A stretch of 64,000 bases of DNA, from the NCBI GenBank assembly GCA_007378985.1, contig VMHB01000001.1, forward strand, positions 192,252 through 256,251, given 5' to 3'. This document shows, one piece after another, positions 4,363 to 53,257 of the stretch. The position numbers were made by a program, and so were the translations under genes. Under the pieces are notes generated by a model. It was given only the letters and a program-made list of their open reading frames with translations. It was not told the DNA's origin and made no database searches. The number at the start of each line of letters is the position of its first letter. The stretch's first letter is position 1. The DNA comes from Parcubacteria group bacterium Greene0714_7. Its GTDB lineage: Bacteria; Patescibacteriota; Minisyncoccia; Phycocordibacterales; Phycocordibacteraceae.

Positions 4363-4465
4363 TAGGTAGCCGCACAGGTGTTGAATTTTGTAGTTTTTTC
4401 CCTAAAACCTAGTCCCTAGCACCTACCTCTGTGGTATCCTGTTTTTATTAACTAAGCATTTTTTT

Positions 4466-6235: not shown

Positions 6236-6318
6236 TTTCTAAATTTCTACTCCTCTCGAATTTCTAACTCTTAGAAAGAACTGTGTGAGAAAATTTTTCC
6301 GCAATACCTTTATAAACT

Positions 6319-6360
6319 CATCCTCTAAACACTATCATATATGATAGTGTTTAGAGGATG
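6319..6360. promoter_or_regulatory. Perfect 42-bp palindrome overlapping the yerC-like start codon (putative operator)
   Basis: catcctctaaacactatcatatatgatagtgtttagaggatg is perfectly self-complementary. The ATG at 6358 lies inside its right arm. Confidence 0.6.
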
Positions 6361-6786
6361 AAGGTTAAACCAAAAAAACTCACAAAAGATCAAATTATTG
6401 AAACTCTTGATGCTTTATATACAGCGGCAGGGTCACTACGAGGGCGTGCCACTATGAAATTATTTCTTCGCGATCTTCTGACCGAAGGAGAGAGGGTGAT
6501 GCTTGGTAGACGCATTCTGATTGCAAGACATCTTTTACGGGGTGAAAGCTATATCAGTATTCAACGTACTCTTGGCACAAGTCCTGTAACAATACGAAAT
6601 GTAGAGAAATGGTTAGACGATCAAATGCCGGGGTACGAGACAGCGATTAAGGGTATGCAAGCAACTTTTGCAAAGCGAAAACAAAAAAGCGCATCCATTG
6701 GCACATTTGCTTACTTAAAGAAGCGTTACCCGTTGCACTTTCTCCTCTTTCCGTGGCCAAAAGGGTATCGTACGGAAGATCAGTAA
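6358..6786 (+). CDS. TrpR-like DNA-binding protein, YerC/YecD family
   Basis: 142 aa. Shares a signature with the paralog at 52390-52830 (LYTAAGS.RGR.TMKLFLRDLLTE.ER.MLGRRI.IAR.L…KRKYPLHFLLFP). Confidence 0.8.
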   Translation: MKVKPKKLTKDQIIETLDALYTAAGSLRGRATMKLFLRDLLTEGERVMLGRRILIARHLLRGESYISIQRTLGTSPVTIRNVEKWLDDQMPGYETAIKGMQATFAKRKQKSASIGTFAYLKKRYPLHFLLFPWPKGYRTEDQ

Positions 6787-6793
6787 TATAAAC

Positions 6794-6813
6794 CACTATC
6801 ATATATGATAGTG
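6794..6813. promoter_or_regulatory. Second copy of the CACTATCATATATGATAGTG palindrome, immediately downstream of the yerC-like gene and upstream of rarA
   Basis: Perfect 20-bp palindrome identical to the core of the 6319-6360 site. Confidence 0.55.
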
Positions 6814-13316: not shown

Positions 13317-13337
13317 TGATTTTGGTATAGTGATTCT

Positions 13338-14567
13338 GTGGAGAAGAAAGATCTAGATTTTTCAAAGATTCCTGATACGCCAGGCATTTATATTTTTCGA
13401 AAAGGAAAGAAGATTTTGTATATAGGTAAAGCAACCTCACTTAGAAGTAGGGTCCGTAGTTATTTTGTTGATGCTATAGCTGATATCCGCAGTCCCTTGA
13501 TTGCAAAGATTGTTGCGGACGCGGGAGTGGTTACTTGGGAAGAAACTGATTCAGTTTTAGAGGCATTCCTTTTGGAGTCCAAGCGAATAAAAGAATATCA
13601 GCCAGTAGGAAATACAGATGCTAAAGATAATAAGAGTTGGAATTATTTAGTGGTTACCAATGAAACCTTTCCTCGTTTTCTTGTTGTTCGTGAAAGAGAA
13701 CTTACTTCTAAATTTTCTCCATCTCTCATCAAGCATCTCTTCGGACCTTTTCCGAGTGGAGCAATGCTCAAGAGTGCTTTAAAAATAATTCGGAGAATTT
13801 TTCCTTTCTTTGATACCAAGTTTCCTTTAGACGGTCATTTAAGTCCTGCGAATGACAAGACGTTCCACTTTAATCAATCCATCGGGCTTTATCCGCGCGA
13901 GCTCAATGAAACTGAATATAAAAAAACAGTTCGGAATATCGTGCTTCTTTTTGAAGCAAAGAAATCAACTCTTTTGAAAACATTGGAGCGAGAAATGATG
14001 AGATCAGCAAAAGCTGAGGATTTTGAAGAAGCAGAAAAACTAAAACGACAAGTGTTTGCCTTAAAGCACATTCAAGACATTAGTTTAGTAAAAGAAGAGC
14101 TCCGTGCTCCTGATAGCTCCGAATTTCGTATCGAAGCCTATGACACGGCTCACATTCGTGGCAGTGCTCCGCGTGGGGTTATGTCGGTCATAGTGGATGG
14201 GGAAGCTGTTCCCGCTGAATATCGAATATTCACGATTCGAGATGCAAAGGCAGGTGATGATTTTGCAGCCCTTACAGAAATCATCACACGAAGAGCTAAT
14301 CATCCAGAATGGCCTTTCCCAAAATTAGTAGTTATTGATGGAGGAAAAACGCATCTGAATATGGCAAAGAAGGTGCTTGTGAAAGTGGGTATTGATGCGG
14401 ATGTTGTTTCTGTAGTGAAAGACGAACGACATCGTCCACGAGAAATTTTAGGCGGTACTGCGCTCGCTGTAACACATGAATCCAGCATTCTTCTTGCAAA
14501 TAGCGAGGCTCATCGTTTCGCTATTTCTCGCCATAGAAGGGCATTACGGAAGTCTCATATACAGTAA
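13338..14567 (+). CDS. uvrC: Excinuclease ABC subunit C, compact form (GIY-YIG + UVR + RNase H-like domain, apparently lacking the C-terminal HhH2)
   Basis: GIY-YIG N-terminus (GIYIFRKGKKILYIGKATSLRSR), a UVR-like helix (EEAEKLKRQVFALKHI) and the C-terminal endonuclease region (YDTAHIRG…YRIF…DDFAAL). At 409 aa it is shorter than the usual ~600 aa. Confidence 0.75.
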   Translation: MEKKDLDFSKIPDTPGIYIFRKGKKILYIGKATSLRSRVRSYFVDAIADIRSPLIAKIVADAGVVTWEETDSVLEAFLLESKRIKEYQPVGNTDAKDNKSWNYLVVTNETFPRFLVVRERELTSKFSPSLIKHLFGPFPSGAMLKSALKIIRRIFPFFDTKFPLDGHLSPANDKTFHFNQSIGLYPRELNETEYKKTVRNIVLLFEAKKSTLLKTLEREMMRSAKAEDFEEAEKLKRQVFALKHIQDISLVKEELRAPDSSEFRIEAYDTAHIRGSAPRGVMSVIVDGEAVPAEYRIFTIRDAKAGDDFAALTEIITRRANHPEWPFPKLVVIDGGKTHLNMAKKVLVKVGIDADVVSVVKDERHRPREILGGTALAVTHESSILLANSEAHRFAISRHRRALRKSHIQ

Positions 14568-16345: not shown

Positions 16346-17257
16346 ATGAAAAAAACACCTGCGCCTATTGTTGTGAAAGGAACTTTCAAACTCAAGTCGG
16401 GTTTGGCTGACATGCTAAAGGGCGGTGTCATTATGGATGTCGTAAATGTAGAGCATGCAAAGATTGCAGAAGATGCCGGGGCTGTTGCGGTGATGGCCCT
16501 CGAGCGGGTGCCGTCTGATATTCGTGCCATGGGTGGTGTAGCTCGTATGTCTGATCCAAAAATGATTAAAGGCATACAGTCTGCTGTTACCATTCCTGTA
16601 ATGGCAAAGTGCAGAATAGGGCACTTCGTGGAGGCACAGGTACTCGAAGCTCTGGCTGTGGATTTCATTGATGAAAGCGAAGTGCTTACTCCTGCAGACG
16701 AACAATTTCATATTTCAAAAGAAAATTTCACCGTGCCGTTTGTGTGTGGCGCCCGTGATTTAGGGGAGGCTCTCAGAAGAATCTCTGAAGGAGCCGCAAT
16801 GATACGAACAAAGGGTGAAGCGGGTAGTGGAAATATTGTGGAAGCAGTACGGCACATTCGTGCGATGCAAGCAGGTATTACTGAGCTTGTCGACCTTCTT
16901 AAGAAAAAGAATACAAAAAAATTACAAACGCTTGCTCGTGAGTATAGGGTTTCATATGAATTGGTTTTAAAAGTAGTGAAGCTGGGACGATTGCCGGTAG
17001 TTAATTTTGCAGCGGGAGGCATTGCAACTCCAGCGGACGCAGCGCTCTGTATGCAACTTGGTGTTGATGGTGTGTTTGTAGGTTCAGGGATATTTAAGAG
17101 TTCAAATCCTAAAAAAACAGCGAGGGCTATTGTTGACTCCGTTGCTCACTTTAATGATGCAAAAAAGATTGCACTAGCAAGTGAAGATGTAGGAGAGGCT
17201 ATGAAGGGGCAAGAAATTTCAGCTCTCCAAACTCGTTTAGCAAGTCGTGGTATTTAG
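16346..17257 (+). CDS. pdxS: Pyridoxal 5'-phosphate synthase, synthase subunit
   Basis: Highly conserved PdxS/Pdx1 sequence (GGVIMDVVN…[11 protein letters not shown]…[11 protein letters not shown]). Confidence 0.92.
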
Positions 17258-17867
17258 TGCTTCCATGCGCTCTCTCACGGTAGGTGTTCTCGCGCTTCAA
17301 GGCGATGTGAGTGAGCATATAGAAGCAACCAAATCGGCAGGGACTCTTTTAAAGATTCCAATCACCGTTATATCTGTTCGTATAGCGGGTGATTTGGAAA
17401 CACTTGACGCTCTTATTATTCCTGGGGGTGAAAGCACCACACTGCAAAAACTGTGCGAAAGGGAAGGAATGTTTCAGAAAATGAAAAAAGTGAAGAATAT
17501 ATTTGGCACCTGTGCTGGGGCAATTCTTCTAGCAAAAGAAGTTTTACATAAAACATCAGACCAAAAAACTCTAGCTCTTATGAATATAGAGGTGGATAGA
17601 AATGCCTATGGTCGCCAGAATGAATCTTTCGAAAGGGTAATTGAGACGGAATTTGGACAAATGAATGCGGTTTTTATTCGTGCTCCAAAAATACGAACCG
17701 TTGGAAAGAAACTAAAGGTACTTGCTAGAAATGGAACTGAAATAGTTGCCTGTGAGGAACGAGATGGAGGCAGATACTACTTAGCCACGTGTTTTCATCC
17801 AGAGTACACCTCTGGCGCTTTCCATAAATATTTTTTAGAGCAGACTTTGCGAGAGGTAGTTGGGTAG
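17247..17867 (+). CDS. pdxT: Pyridoxal 5'-phosphate synthase, glutaminase subunit
   Basis: Class I glutamine amidotransferase (GVLALQGD…, catalytic Cys in GTCAG). Overlaps the pdxS end as usual. Confidence 0.9.
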
Positions 17868-20621: not shown

Positions 20622-21767
20622 ATGTCACGGGTAAAAATTACGGAGTATAGAGCTAAGAAACTTATACTTGGGGACGCATATGCGGGTCGTTCCTTGTCGG
20701 GTATTTCTGATGTTGGGTTTACGAAACCCAACATGGTGGTGAAGGTTGATCAAGGGATTAAGAAGCGTTTTAAGCAGGGGCTTGTTGCGGTCAATGTTTC
20801 TTCAAAGGAGGCAGGGCAGAAAGTAAGGGAATGGGAAAAGCGAGGTTTTTCTCATTTTCTTGTTGAGCCGTATGTATCGCATGAGGAGTCTGAAGAGCAG
20901 TACCTTTTTTTAGAGCGGGTACGCACGGGGATACGAGTTCTACATGCTTCTTCGGGTGGTATTGATATCGAGGCACACCCAGAACTAGTGAAAACATATC
21001 TCATAAACCCGGCACTATCATATATGGTAGTGCCGGGCATCCCAGAAAAATTCTTGAAACATCTTGTGGAGGTGTTTGAAAAAAACTTTTTCTCTTTTCT
21101 TGAAATTAATCCACTTGTTGTTCGGGGAGATGAGGTATATATCCTCGATGCAGCGGTGCTCGTCGACAGCGCGGGAATATTTTTCGTCAAAAATGGATGG
21201 AACGAAGAAGACGTTGTTGAGGGAAAGGTACGACATATTGCTGAAGAAAAAGTACAGGCACTTCAAAAAACTACCCCTGCCTCCCTGAAACTCACCATTT
21301 TGCACCCTGATGGAGGTTTGTTTTTTCTGCTTTCAGGTGGTGGTGGAAGTATTGTTATTGCAGATGAGGCAGAACTTAATGGTGTGGGTCGCTCCATTGG
21401 TAATTATGGAGAATATAGCGGTGGTCCAACTCGAGAAGAAACACATCTCTACGCACGAGAGGTGATTCAGCTATTACTTAATTCACCTGCAAAGAAGAAG
21501 GCGCTCGTGATTGCTGGAGGTATTGCAAATTTTACTGATGTTAAGTCAACATTTAAGGGTATTGTTGATGCCTTGTCAGAGTGCGCGAGCACTCTTCGAG
21601 GAAAAGGTGTAAAAGTATTTGTGCGTCGTGGCGGACCGAATGAAATTGAAGGGCTTCTTTTTATGGAAGAGTATTTAAAAAAAGAAAAATTATTTGGTTC
21701 AGTGTATGGTTCTGGTGCAGTAATTACGAGTGCAGTTGATGATGCCATTGCATTTATAAAAAAATGA
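20622..21767 (+). CDS. aclB: ATP-citrate lyase beta (ATP-grasp) subunit
   Basis: Block-by-block match to the N-terminal half of ATP-citrate lyase (MVVKVDQGIKKRFKQGLVAVN; LEINPLVV…VYILDAAVLVDS; SLKLTILHPDGG…GGGGSIV…NYGEYSGGP; IAGGIANFTDVKSTFKGIV; VFVRRGGPN). Confidence 0.85.
   Translation: MSRVKITEYRAKKLILGDAYAGRSLSGISDVGFTKPNMVVKVDQGIKKRFKQGLVAVNVSSKEAGQKVREWEKRGFSHFLVEPYVSHEESEEQYLFLERVRTGIRVLHASSGGIDIEAHPELVKTYLINPALSYMVVPGIPEKFLKHLVEVFEKNFFSFLEINPLVVRGDEVYILDAAVLVDSAGIFFVKNGWNEEDVVEGKVRHIAEEKVQALQKTTPASLKLTILHPDGGLFFLLSGGGGSIVIADEAELNGVGRSIGNYGEYSGGPTREETHLYAREVIQLLLNSPAKKKALVIAGGIANFTDVKSTFKGIVDALSECASTLRGKGVKVFVRRGGPNEIEGLLFMEEYLKKEKLFGSVYGSGAVITSAVDDAIAFIKK
21007..21036. promoter_or_regulatory. 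Near-palindrome cccggCACTATCATATATGGTAGTGccggg inside aclB, resembling the yerC-associated operator motif
   Basis: Shares CACTATCATATATG with the 6319/6794 sites and ATATGG with the 52354/52877 sites. One mismatch from a perfect palindrome. Confidence 0.3.
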
Positions 21768-24797: not shown

Positions 24798-24837
24798 TGT
24801 ATAGTATAATTTAACGACCGTTAAATTATACTATACA
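24798..24837. repeat. Palindromic element of the TGTATAGTATAA family (copy 2), between divergent genes
   Basis: tgtatagtataatttaacgaccgttaaattatactataca: perfect 19-nt arms with the same taacgaccgttaa core as copy 1. Confidence 0.6.
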
Positions 24838-40011: not shown

Positions 40012-40184
40012 GAATTGCTGATTGAAGTCGAGTGTTTCATACACTAACTAGCCAATTTTTTATTTAGGAGATATTAGAAAAAAGAAAAATGGAAACAGTG
40101 GGTTGATATAGTTCAACAAATAGGAAGTAGGGCAAAATAAATTAGGACCCTCTAATAATTAATGCCCCGTGTCTCCGAAAAACA

Positions 40185-40228
40185 CCTGTATAGTATAAAA
40201 TCACGGTCGTGATTTTATACTATACAGG
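40185..40228. repeat. Palindromic element of the TGTATAGTATAA family (copy 3), followed by a T-run, so likely also a terminator
   Basis: cctgtatagtataaaatcacggtcgtgattttatactatacagg is a perfect 44-nt palindrome. Core cacggtcgtg is the reverse complement of the cgaccg-type core in copies 1-2. It is followed by ttttaaatttttttttt. Confidence 0.6.
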
Positions 40229-40287
40229 GTTTTAAATTTTTTTTTTAGGCTAGCCACTAAAGCCTAAACCCTATACACTGCTCCTTT

Positions 40288-48960: not shown

Positions 48961-49000
48961 CCATTTCTTATATATCGATTAATCGATATATAAGAAATGG
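48961..49000. promoter_or_regulatory. Perfect 40-bp palindrome immediately upstream of a consensus promoter
   Basis: ccatttcttatatatcgattaatcgatatataagaaatgg. Confidence 0.5.
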
Positions 49001-52307: not shown

Positions 52308-52353
52308 TTTTTTAAATTAACGACTAGTGTCTACAAATTTCTTTTTTGCATGA

Positions 52354-52393
52354 CTGAGAAACTTATTTCCATATATGGAAATAAGTTTCTCAG
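52354..52393. promoter_or_regulatory. Perfect 40-bp palindrome overlapping the 3' end of the second yerC-like gene
   Basis: ctgagaaacttatttccatatatggaaataagtttctcag, with a CCATATATGG core. Confidence 0.55.
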
Positions 52394-52830
52394 TCTAATT
52401 TTTTCTTTTTTGGTTCTGGAAATAGAAGAAAATGCAACGGGTATTTGCGTTTAAGTGCTCTGAAAGAAAATGGACCATAGTTCGCCTCAAAAAGGTTTTC
52501 CCTCTTTTTGAATTCTTTATCCATGCTTTTGATTGCTTCCTCGAATCCAGGAAATTGATCTTGAAGCCATCGTTCTACTCGGTATATGGTTGCCAATCCA
52601 ACGCGTAGTTTTGTGGCGATGTCATTAGCTCGTTCGCCTTGGATAAGGAGTCGAGCTATCCAAATTCGCCTTCCAAGCATGATTCTCTCGCTTTCAGTGA
52701 GAAGATCGCGCAGGAAGAGTTTCATTGTGCTTCGTCCGCGAACTGATCCCGCTGCAGTGTAGAGAATATCTAGTGTTTTCATTTTCTCCTCCTTTCCAAG
52801 GTCGCTAGATTTTCTTTTCATACTGAACAT
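52390..52830 (-). CDS. TrpR-like DNA-binding protein, YerC/YecD family (paralog 2)
   Basis: 146 aa. Clear paralog of the 6358-6786 protein (LDILYTAAGSVRGRSTMKLFLRDLLTESERIMLGRRIWIARLL…KRKYPLHFLLFP). Confidence 0.8.
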   Translation of the reverse strand: MFSMKRKSSDLGKEEKMKTLDILYTAAGSVRGRSTMKLFLRDLLTESERIMLGRRIWIARLLIQGERANDIATKLRVGLATIYRVERWLQDQFPGFEEAIKSMDKEFKKRENLFEANYGPFSFRALKRKYPLHFLLFPEPKKKKLD

Positions 52831-52832
52831 AT

Positions 52833-52850
52833 TTTCATATATGGAAATAT
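52833..52850. promoter_or_regulatory. Near-palindromic TTTTCATATATGGAAA site immediately upstream of the yerC paralog-2 start
   Basis: Half-sites TTTTCATAT and ATATGGAAA, 3-8 bp from the start codon (minus strand). Confidence 0.5.
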
Positions 52851-52874
52851 CTGCACGAAAACATGGTGTATAAC

Positions 52875-52918
52875 TTCACTCACATGTATTTCCATATATG
52901 GAAATACATGTGAGTGAA
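52875..52918. promoter_or_regulatory. Perfect 44-bp palindrome with CCATATATGG core upstream of yerC paralog 2
   Basis: ttcactcacatgtatttccatatatggaaatacatgtgagtgaa. Confidence 0.55.
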
Positions 52919-52969
52919 CAGATTTGGGCGTGCAAGATGAGCTAGGCAAAAGGGTGGTATATTTGATAA

Positions 52970-53257
52970 ATGGTGCAGGTATTTTCAAAGAAGTTCAAAG
53001 ATGATTTCAGGGCTCGAGTGGTGGCGGTGGTAAAGAAAATACCGCGCGGAAAAACTATGAGTTATGGGCAGGTTGCTCTGGCAGCTGGGCGTCCAAATGC
53101 AGGAAGGGCAGTTGGAACTATTATGGCGGGAAATCAGGATAAGGGCGTGCCGTGTCACCGAGTGATTCGCTCTGATGGGAAAATTGGGGGCTACAACGGT
53201 CTTCGAGATGGTTTGAGTAAGGAAGAACTTTTAAGAAAGGAAGGGGCGATTAAATAG
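52970..53257 (+). CDS. ogt: Methylated-DNA--protein-cysteine methyltransferase (DNA-binding/active-site domain only)
   Basis: Active-site motif VPCHRVIRSDGKIGGY. At 95 aa it is the C-terminal domain alone. Confidence 0.8.
   Translation: MVQVFSKKFKDDFRARVVAVVKKIPRGKTMSYGQVALAAGRPNAGRAVGTIMAGNQDKGVPCHRVIRSDGKIGGYNGLRDGLSKEELLRKEGAIK

Follow-up and report, generated by a model that had tools for sequence, protein, structure and literature searches.

A TrpR-fold regulator gene of a Parcubacteria genome, bracketed by palindromes that are likely to be its own private operators

Why should a small regulatory gene be enclosed between long and almost perfect palindromes, and do these palindromes belong to the protein that is encoded between them? 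The question is raised by a locus of Parcubacteria group bacterium Greene0714_7 (assembly GCA_007378985.1, the 292-kb contig VMHB01000001.1), where a gene that we call yerC2, encoding a helix-turn-helix (HTH) regulator of the TrpR fold, is accompanied by three related palindromes, sites D, E and F. The window, that is the whole stretch of DNA that we analysed, comprises 64,000 nucleotides of this contig (positions 192,252 to 256,251) and also contains a paralog, yerC1, with palindromes of its own, sites A and B, and a further relative of these, site C, inside another gene (Table 1). From comparisons of the sequences of this locus and its homologs, we consider it likely that D, E and F are private, cognate 20-bp operators of the TrpR-fold protein encoded between them.

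An earlier note on this DNA, made from the letters alone, had described three related palindromes around yerC2. All three exist, with small corrections of their coordinates: site F was delimited exactly, the “40-bp” palindrome at 52354-52393 is the inner part of the 44-bp site D, and site E occupies 52830-52849, not 52833-52850. The core common to the three sites is TATTT(C/T)CATATATGGAAATA, and D and F carry an identical 20-mer, TATTTCCATATATGGAAATA (52364-52383 and 52887-52906), between outer arms that are unrelated from one site to the other and are each perfectly self-complementary. With up to three mismatches allowed, this 20-mer is found at three places in the 64-kb window (D, E and F) where 0.00 are expected, and the octamer CATATATG occurs six times against an expectation of 0.75; since these counts far exceed expectation, a chance origin of the sites is excluded. 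The palindromes that the same note had assigned to the first paralog are equally real, one of 44 bp at 6318-6361 (A) and one of 20 bp at 6794-6813 (B), with the common core CACTATCATATATGATAGTG. The corresponding 20-mer has, at up to three mismatches, three copies in the window (A, B and C), site C matching the core at 19/20 positions. The arrangement about the two genes is the same: the proximal core stops 8 nt short of the ATG (for site E, the yerC2 ATG at 52821) and the downstream core begins 6-8 nt past the stop codon. A tblastn search found no third paralog in the window.

That the palindromes are cognate 20-bp operators follows, in our opinion, from the ability of the HTH residues to predict the operator bases. 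We calculated the mutual information between the columns of the protein alignment and the half-site positions for 128 gene-site pairs. The second position of the recognition helix (A77 in yerC2, V77 in yerC1) covaries with bases -4 and -5 (z 26.6); the first position (L76 and P76, respectively) and the fifth (Y80 and R80) both covary with bases -6 and -8 (z 13.6 and 11.9); and a position in the first HTH helix (N66 and I66) covaries with base -9 (z 12.6). The residue-to-base rules that emerge are chemically sensible. At the second residue of the recognition helix, Asp is accompanied by TG at -5/-4 in 46/47 cases, Asn by TC in 17/18 and Ala by CC in 15/19; at position 1, all 16 cases of Arg have G at -8 and all 23 cases of Pro have A at -6; Glu at position 5 is accompanied by C at -8 (11/11) and Arg in the first HTH helix by G at -9 (24/24). 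Each of these rules recurs in 3-8 sequence clusters, and among pairs of proteins with 70% identity or more outside the HTH, the half-sites diverge steadily (0.69 to 3.83 differences) as the key residues do (0 to 5 differences). Both window paralogs obey the rules, yerC2 having L76, A77 and Y80 with TTTCC at -8 to -4, and yerC1 having P76, V77 and R80 with CTATC. A dimer would thus be expected to use its first HTH helix, together with recognition-helix positions 1, 2 and 5, to read the half-site from -10 to -4, and the invariant ATATAT centre probably serves indirect readout or has a structural role.

The earlier note had interpreted the different cores of the two paralogs as the divergence of paralogous regulators that insulate their regulons, and had proposed a comparison of their recognition helices. 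The covariation of site and protein is borne out by this comparison. Its restriction to paralogs is not: the closest orthologs of yerC2, at the homologous loci L004 and L084, are 72-74% identical to it and have the same ogt-like/PD-(D/E)XK synteny, yet their core is TATCTTATAAGATA. Specificity therefore changes in place and not only after duplication. Within single genomes, the paralogs differ at two or more positions per half-site in all 14 pairs, data that fit insulation in a sample too small to have statistical power. Operator core and HTH would appear to co-evolve fast, giving each paralog, and many orthologs, a private specificity.

To see the locus in its family, we collected 160 homologous loci from GTDB genomes and metagenomes, which yielded 147 non-redundant genes, 143 of them with both flanks; as a site we counted a 20-bp palindrome with at least 8/10 pairs, situated no more than 120 bp upstream of the ATG or 120 bp past the stop codon. 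The subfamily itself is large, with more than 1,200 clusters spread over the Patescibacteria. A palindrome is present at both ends of 121/143 genes (85%), compared with 50/508 control windows, and in 80 loci perfect palindromes are 25-fold enriched in the gene flanks (3.62 per kb vs 0.145 elsewhere). The centres of the upstream sites peak at -17/-18 from the ATG and most downstream centres fall between +7 and +30. In 143 sites the eight central bases are CATATATG, and in 89 they are GATATATC. The upstream and downstream half-sites of one gene agree at 6.3/7 variable positions, whereas non-cognate pairs agree at 3.2/7. A search for the gene’s own core (16-mer, at most two mismatches) at more than 200 bp from the gene gave six matches in about 350 kb of homolog flanks: three belonging to the adjacent second paralog (L023), one at 205 bp upstream (L011) and two distant (L030 and L031). 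Because remote copies are so rare, the “regulon” of the earlier note has to be amended to mostly the gene itself. The neighbours are varied housekeeping genes, most commonly obg upstream and secA downstream, with ogt and rarA among the others; a conserved target operon was considered and rejected, as a Pfam tally of 142 neighbour proteins shows no common theme. Locus L004 also contains (1391-1807) a second, more divergent TrpR-like gene of 138 aa that lacks the HFLLFP motif described below. It is bracketed by perfect palindromes at 1356-1389 and 1836-1863 with the core ACTATACGATATATCGTATAGT, and the bracket architecture therefore reaches beyond the subfamily studied here.

These distributions bear directly on the possibility, raised in the earlier note itself, that the palindromes are a dispersed repeat with no relation to the regulators; such a repeat would be of the repetitive extragenic palindrome (REP) or miniature inverted-repeat transposable element (MITE) kind. 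They bear also on the view that a different protein uses the palindromes as operators. A single copy of the paralog-1 core does stand 14 kb away inside another gene, and the window does contain other long palindromes. However, five of the six window copies flank the two regulator genes; the enrichment in the flanks holds over 80 loci; the truly distant own-core copies in the ~350 kb of homolog flanks are two, plus the one 205 bp upstream; the bases are predicted by the HTH residues of the adjacent protein; and the other window palindromes are unrelated in sequence and in architecture. With three copies per core in 64 kb, the pattern is also far from the many copies plus transposase that define a REP family with its REP-associated tyrosine transposase (RAYT) or a MITE. 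We regard this explanation as effectively refuted.

Table 1. The two regulator genes of the window, the associated palindromes and the divergent neighbour of yerC2 (window coordinates).
Feature	Coordinates	Strand	Description
yerC2	52390-52821	-	TrpR-fold HTH regulator, 143 aa; longest open reading frame reaches 52830
Site D	52352-52395 (core 52364-52383)		Perfect 44-bp palindrome over the yerC2 stop codon, between the convergent Cas4-like gene and yerC2
Site E	52830-52849		Candidate proximal operator; 20-bp near-palindrome TATTTTCATATATGGAAATA with one mismatched pair
Site F	52875-52918 (core 52887-52906)		Perfect 44-bp palindrome in the divergent region common to yerC2 and the ogt-like gene
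ogt-like gene	52970-53257	+	95 aa, DNA_binding_1 domain only; divergent neighbour
yerC1	6358-6786	+	142 aa, 60% identical to yerC2
Site A	6318-6361 (core 6330-6349)		Perfect 44-bp palindrome; right arm runs into the yerC1 start codon
Site B	6794-6813		Perfect 20-bp palindrome; begins 8 nt past the yerC1 stop codon
Site C	21008-21037 (core 21013-21032)		30-bp near-palindrome CCCGGCACTATCATATATGGTAGTGCCGGG inside the ATP-citrate-lyase-beta-like gene (20622-21767)

With respect to the protein, yerC2 scores 48.7 bits against the Pfam family PF01371 Trp_repressor (cut-off 27) and every listed homolog carries this domain. Against the NCBIfam model TIGR02531 (YerC/YecD) the window proteins obtain 27.9 and 26.0 bits, where the cut-off is 42.2, and they also fall below the cut-off of the curated NCBIfam TrpR model. 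A profile of the family finds the YerC/HisR-type structures 3FRW, 3KOR and 3G1C (E-values between 1e-10 and 1e-8) and, with a weaker score, E. coli TrpR (about 1e-3). The AlphaFold2 model of yerC2 is all-helical, with a mean predicted local distance difference test score (pLDDT) of 85, and a Foldseek search with this model returns the same three structures as best matches (template modelling scores, TM, of 0.80-0.85; 0.62-0.68 for E. coli TrpR), in agreement with the all-alpha TrpR fold, in which helices D and E make up the HTH. The relatives in the PDB cover only positions 9-104 of the family profile. The C-terminal 40 residues or so form additional helices (residues 92-133) with a near-invariant LKRKYPLHFLLFPxPK motif that has no counterpart in the solved relatives, and the resulting 142-143 aa contrast with the ~100 aa of YerC/YecD proteins. 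Because of the sub-cut-off YerC/YecD scores and this extension, we consider the window proteins to be a distinct, Patescibacteria-wide subfamily, within the TrpR family but not YerC proper; the label “YerC paralog” of the earlier note is thus a loose one (26-28 bits, and an extension of some 40 aa). The YerC protein of B. subtilis is HisR, a histidine-responsive repressor of the TrpR family with 20-bp palindromic operators (PMC9413887). The binding sites of TrpR, like those of HisR, are palindromes of 20 bp, and autoregulation is known for TrpR and for some HisR genes (PMC9413887). In the TrpR family, DNA binding depends on an amino-acid co-repressor; the highly conserved N-terminal core of the window proteins would be compatible with a ligand pocket. 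Finally, judging from the family N-terminus MK[RKV][KR], yerC2 probably starts at the ATG at 52821 (MKRKSSDLGKEEKMKTLD, MKRKSSDL...) and not at 52830; the public annotation, like the longest open reading frame, gives a 146-aa product beginning MFSMKRK.

What the upstream operator might do is suggested by its position. A Shine-Dalgarno-like sequence precedes only 9/134 family genes. In the main class of upstream sites, at -12 to -20, the operator-proximal hexamer fits TAnnnT in 36/53 cases and ends 6-7 nt before the ATG in 33/57, and in a second positional class the palindrome is placed just upstream of a separate -10-like hexamer. In cores with CATATATG, the TG of the centre supplies an extended -10, for example at yerC1, where the right arm of site A reads TG-A-TAGTGT followed by 7 nt and the ATG. 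In site E the proximal half on the gene strand, including its single mismatch and flank, reads TG-A-AAATAT, then 7 nt, then the ATG, and is thus also extended -10-like. A TAnnnT hexamer that resembles a -10 element, 6-7 nt ahead of an ATG without a Shine-Dalgarno sequence, is thus overlapped or abutted by the upstream operator. This is the classic layout for autorepression, which we infer: the bound protein would exclude RNA polymerase from its own leaderless, monocistronic promoter. At the yerC2 locus, E would be the promoter operator, F an auxiliary upstream operator with its centre 57 bp from E, and D a downstream operator that would also be terminator-like for the Cas4-like gene. The series TGnTAnnnT, 6-7 nt, start codon, with no Shine-Dalgarno sequence, can be seen at 52955-52972 (ogt-like gene), 13323-13340 (uvrC, the element itself at 13323-13331) and 6343-6360 (yerC1); from its presence at the ogt-like and uvrC start codons, leaderless transcription seems to be common in this genome.

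A downstream operator that is nearly universal calls for a function as well. It is not the promoter operator of the next gene, since downstream neighbours are mostly convergent (55/72 loci). A general role as terminator was considered and rejected: a T-run on either side is found at 7-10% of the downstream sites and at 5/19 of those with arms of at least 16 nt, rare at any arm length, and this role is kept for site D only, which shows the terminator pattern on the + strand, a 20-pair stem and then a T-run. The same numbers bear on the view that all these palindromes are RNA hairpins, be they terminators, attenuators, mRNA-stabilising or start-codon-sequestering elements, whose shared core would be incidental to the protein. 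Besides the fit of site D to an intrinsic terminator, it can be said for this view that the 44-mers fold at -20 kcal/mol (z ~ -11.7), that an arm of site A covers the yerC1 start codon and that a bidirectional stop would be useful between so many convergent neighbours. Yet, apart from the scarcity of T-runs, the upstream sites in divergent promoter regions are extended as often as the downstream ones; the mismatches have no G.U-type bias (in the core they are few and without G.T bias) and the outer arms are nearly free of them; the upstream site would be untranscribed if the gene is leaderless; no Rfam family matches, apart from generic hairpins below threshold; and the prediction of core bases by HTH residues is left unexplained. 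We find RNA hairpins a quite unlikely general explanation.

If the sites are operators, as we prefer, the downstream one would most likely let two dimers, joined through the C-terminal extension as a dimer of dimers, bind cooperatively or loop the ~470-bp gene; looping has the merit of tying the family-specific C-terminal helices to the family-specific second operator. It may also serve, as roadblock or insulator, to hold off transcription from the neighbour, which is usually convergent. One can go further and picture a self-contained Patescibacteria cassette, in which a leaderless TrpR-fold gene has two private operators bridged by its C-terminal domain and in which symmetrisation of the palindromes (see below) speeds their co-evolution with the protein, the whole amounting to a library of orthogonal repressor/operator pairs with a simple residue-to-base code. 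In this full form the idea is speculative and we would call it doubtful. The sites could also have a role beyond gene regulation, such as insulation or roadblocks in compact genomes, or the marking of chromosomal locations like that of site C.

Many of the palindromes extend well past their 20-bp core. Perfect arms of at least 12 nt are present in 95/264 sites and of at least 20 nt in 18, the longest palindrome being 62 bp; only some 0.1% of random sequences would have five further pairs beyond the 20-bp core. Neither the two sites of a single gene nor those of orthologs have the same extensions, which show just 2 outer-arm mismatches in ~750 pairs and end abruptly. Among 23 ortholog-like pairs of sites there are 46 arm positions that differ, and nevertheless both members are still perfect palindromes. 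For example, between site A of the window and that of locus L165 a 4-nt block next to the start codon (ATGA/GAGG) has been changed, and the change is mirrored in the distal arm (TCAT/CCTC). We think that the arms beyond the 20-bp core would not be read by the protein, and that one arm probably served as hairpin template for the other, a copying process that starts from the perfect core with its AT centre and both makes the arms and keeps them perfect. The near-absence of mismatches, the abrupt ends and the mirrored changes fit such quasi-palindrome template switching and are a poor fit to pairwise selection on RNA. Symmetrisation of this kind would ease the concerted change of both half-sites and could therefore help to explain the fast evolution of specificity.

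The same arms can be viewed differently, as having been selected at the DNA level because the sites are extruded cruciforms, acting as supercoiling-sensitive promoter switches or as structure-specific targets. In the window, the arms of the three long family palindromes (6318-6361, 52352-52395 and 52875-52918) are all exactly 22 nt with unrelated outer sequences; in other genomes arm lengths range from 13 to 31 and are unequal within a genome. The uniform length in the window would suit a cruciform, as would the strict symmetry with abrupt ends, the lack of any spacer, the low GC content of the outer arms (29-32% vs 50% overall) and an invariant (AT)3 centre, at which melting and extrusion would be easier, although the ATATAT centre and the AT-rich arms fit template switching and cruciform selection alike. 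Against extrusion, most sites are only ~20 bp (median arm 10), too short for stable cruciforms, arm length varies widely between and within genomes, and a dimeric HTH that reads both half-sites needs a linear duplex. Cruciforms as the function of these sites seem unlikely to us, yet worth considering for the outer arms.

Site C is the one window copy that is not next to a regulator gene. It codes in frame for PALSYMVVPG, a variable loop of the ATP-citrate-lyase (ACL)-like protein, and the palindromic segment takes the place of this loop only in the four closest ACL-like homologs. An in-frame insertion was rejected as its origin, since the homologs have the same length or more at this place and a variable loop has been replaced. 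In the genome of loci L004 and L164 the orthologous site (L164 1887-1916) is a perfect 30-bp palindrome with the core CACTCCCATATATGGGAGTG, which differs from site C by one mirrored double change and one single change, and the L168 site (L168/L169, about 4380-4410) reads CACATCCATATATGAGTGTG. The core in the ACL gene thus varies between genomes by mirrored changes, from CACTATCATA.. in the window to CACTCCCATA.. in L164 and CACATCCATA.. in L168. There are hints that this site may track whichever paralog is resident. A 16-mer, CATCCATATATGAGTG, is common to the ACL site of L168 and to L165 17130-17160, the downstream site of a third paralog, with the same two asymmetries in both; this hints at gene conversion between sites or at one regulator common to that lineage. 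Locus L165 has an 88% ortholog of yerC1 and, as in the window, the synteny tgt-yerC1-rarA-uvrB-uvrA. Between uvrA and uvrC it contains a block of ~900 bp (16828-17734) that has no counterpart at window position 13317-13337, and that holds a 75-aa open reading frame and, in antiparallel orientation, the third TrpR-like paralog, which has palindromes of its own (core ATTCACCCATATATGGGTGAAT).

Such observations might suggest that gene and flanking palindromes form a mobile or selfish cassette akin to REP/RAYT, the palindromes being its termini or recombination sites and the protein serving its own propagation. The tight bracketing by cognate palindromes recalls RAYT genes between their REPs; the gene is usually antiparallel to both neighbours; the third paralog is present between uvrA and uvrC in L165 and absent from the window; a palindrome has replaced a loop-coding segment in frame within one small clade of ACL-like genes; and each protein has very few targets besides its own gene. 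On the other hand, the 143-aa protein consists wholly of the TrpR fold and its extra helices, with no catalytic domain. A scan of viral contigs found no relatives, copies are not dispersed, the L165 indel has no obvious target-site duplication, and synteny is stable within ortholog groups (obg-gene-secA in ~10 loci; ogt-gene-PDDEXK in L004 and the window). A mobile cassette is in our judgement very improbable indeed.

Concerning the neighbours of yerC2, the earlier note had suggested that the paralog controls an adjoining cluster of ATP-cone/Mrr and Cas4-like nuclease genes with ogt and ung. For the two nuclease genes this is unsupported, because they come after mnmA, only 2 nt from it, and no site precedes them; the only site that adjoins them is D, at their 3' end. 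PADLOC gave no match for the regulator in the window and only generic Cas4 similarity for its neighbour. The only plausible additional target of site F would be the ogt-like gene, for which we predict an extended -10 at 52955-52963 (TGGTATATT), ending 6 nt ahead of its ATG. The core of site F lies 63-83 bp upstream of this ATG, outside the predicted -10; F may be an auxiliary yerC2 operator or may influence ogt/ung. The ogt-like product is the methyltransferase DNA-binding/active-site domain alone (it has PCHR), without the N-terminal domain, and the gene is kept at the same position in L004.

Several other palindromes were noticed in the window. Two long inverted repeats with 2-nt spacers (24798-24837 and 40180-40233) have the outer motif TGTATAGTATAA(T), extended -10-like, and the first of them lies between divergent genes like two overlapping copies of one strong promoter placed face to face. 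The sequence AAAAACTCTCATGCATGAGAGTTTTT at 2822-2847 is a perfect 26-bp palindrome flanked by A5/T5 that resembles a bidirectional terminator, and CCATTTCTTATATATCGATTAATCGATATATAAGAAATGG at 48961-49000 is a perfect 40-bp palindrome just past a YceG/MltG-like gene; neither is related in sequence to the TrpR-like operators.

A number of points weigh against our interpretation of the sites as simple autoregulatory operators. Site E fits a -10 element less well than most members of the family do, and site F does not overlap the predicted ogt promoter. Perfect palindromes of 44-62 bp with an invariant ATATAT centre go beyond what binding of a transcription factor alone would require, and in HisR operators the centre is unconserved (PMC9413887), in contrast to the sites described here. 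An operator-like site inside a coding gene, as site C, is unusual for a simple autoregulator. Helical phasing of the operator pairs was not significant in a Rayleigh test (best p ~0.05, at 11.0 bp, uncorrected), and the control for kinship in the covariation analysis was limited to the sequence-cluster and close-pair checks given above.

To our knowledge, very little is known of transcriptional regulation in the Patescibacteria, also called the candidate phyla radiation (CPR), and here is a subfamily that is widespread among them and has cis-elements that can be read straight from sequence. A full-text search found no literature on this architecture in CPR, and we found no description of bracketing by an operator pair, of hypervariable specificity that can be decoded, or of extended, perfectly symmetric palindromes. 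If our interpretation is true, there would be a simple code for the TrpR-fold HTH, in which, among other rules, Asp goes with C:G, Arg with G and Asn with T/A, for predicting or engineering orthogonal repressor/operator pairs; operators at both ends of a gene would be an unusual architecture in need of a mechanism, whether looping, roadblock or insulation; symmetrisation of palindromes would seem to drive the concerted evolution of binding sites in a natural case; and there would be evidence for leaderless genes with TGnTAnnnT promoters in these organisms. The annotation is also corrected: this protein is not YerC/HisR proper, and its proposed control of the nuclease genes next to it is unsupported.

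How does this element compare with known systems? The closest by sequence profile and by fold are HisR (YerC) and the structures 3G1C, 3KOR and 3FRW. HisR operators too are 20-bp palindromes with a lineage-specific consensus, and some of the genes are autoregulated (PMC9413887); the outer triplets CAC...GTG of the paralog-1 core resemble the HisR consensus cacTTTAnnnnnnTAAAgtg. However, HisR proteins have fewer than 105 aa, compared with ~140 aa including the LKRKYPLHFLLFPxPK extension here, and the placement of the window sites is not that of HisR operators, which precede genes of histidine biosynthesis or transport, whereas these sites flank the regulator gene and no histidine genes are nearby. 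The logic of the sites is reversed as well, with conserved flanks and a free centre in HisR but an invariant ATATAT centre and variable flanks here, and, unlike HisR, each genome here carries 2-3 paralogs with private cores.

E. coli TrpR is a dimeric HTH repressor with a palindromic operator that overlaps its own promoter, and it is autoregulated. It belongs to the same Pfam family and fold, with a weaker similarity (E ~1e-3, TM 0.62-0.68), and it differs in having a multi-operon regulon with one conserved motif, and in that neither a downstream operator nor hypervariable specificity is known for it. The repressors of the LacI/GalR family loop DNA between a promoter operator and a distant auxiliary one by means of a C-terminal oligomerisation helix, and lac O2 is 401 bp downstream. 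They resemble our element in having two or three operators per unit, and here the extra C-terminal helices (92-133) co-occur with an operator pair. The fold is unrelated, so that the likeness is one of mechanism only, and in our case the second operator is beyond the stop codon, the loop would enclose the whole gene and no helical phase could be detected in the operator spacing. The controller (C) proteins found in restriction-modification systems, and phage repressors with their immunity groups, are likewise small HTH dimers that regulate their own genes. Their palindromic boxes and recognition residues have diverged in ways that prevent cross-talk between co-resident systems. They have another fold and control adjacent restriction-modification or lytic genes; here, the neighbours are varied housekeeping genes with no conserved linked effectors.

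Among elements with palindromes, REP/RAYT (IS200-like) shares the gene flanked by its own cognate palindromes, and the Rickettsia palindromic elements share the palindrome in frame inside a coding gene, as in site C. Both differ from the present case, in which there is no HUH transposase or other catalytic domain and each core has ~3 copies in 64 kb instead of tens to hundreds. Quasi-palindrome template switching in E. coli copies one arm from the other to give perfect symmetry, and it is known as a mechanism of mutational hotspots. The mismatch-free arms, abrupt ends and mirrored multi-base changes found here are much like its products; it is not known as a steady-state shaper of a whole operator family, as it would have to be here. 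Taken together, these comparisons suggest that the element is of a familiar type, an autorepressor from the TrpR family whose operators are palindromic, to which would be added the bracketing of the gene, a hypervariable specificity that can be decoded and the perfect, extended palindromes.

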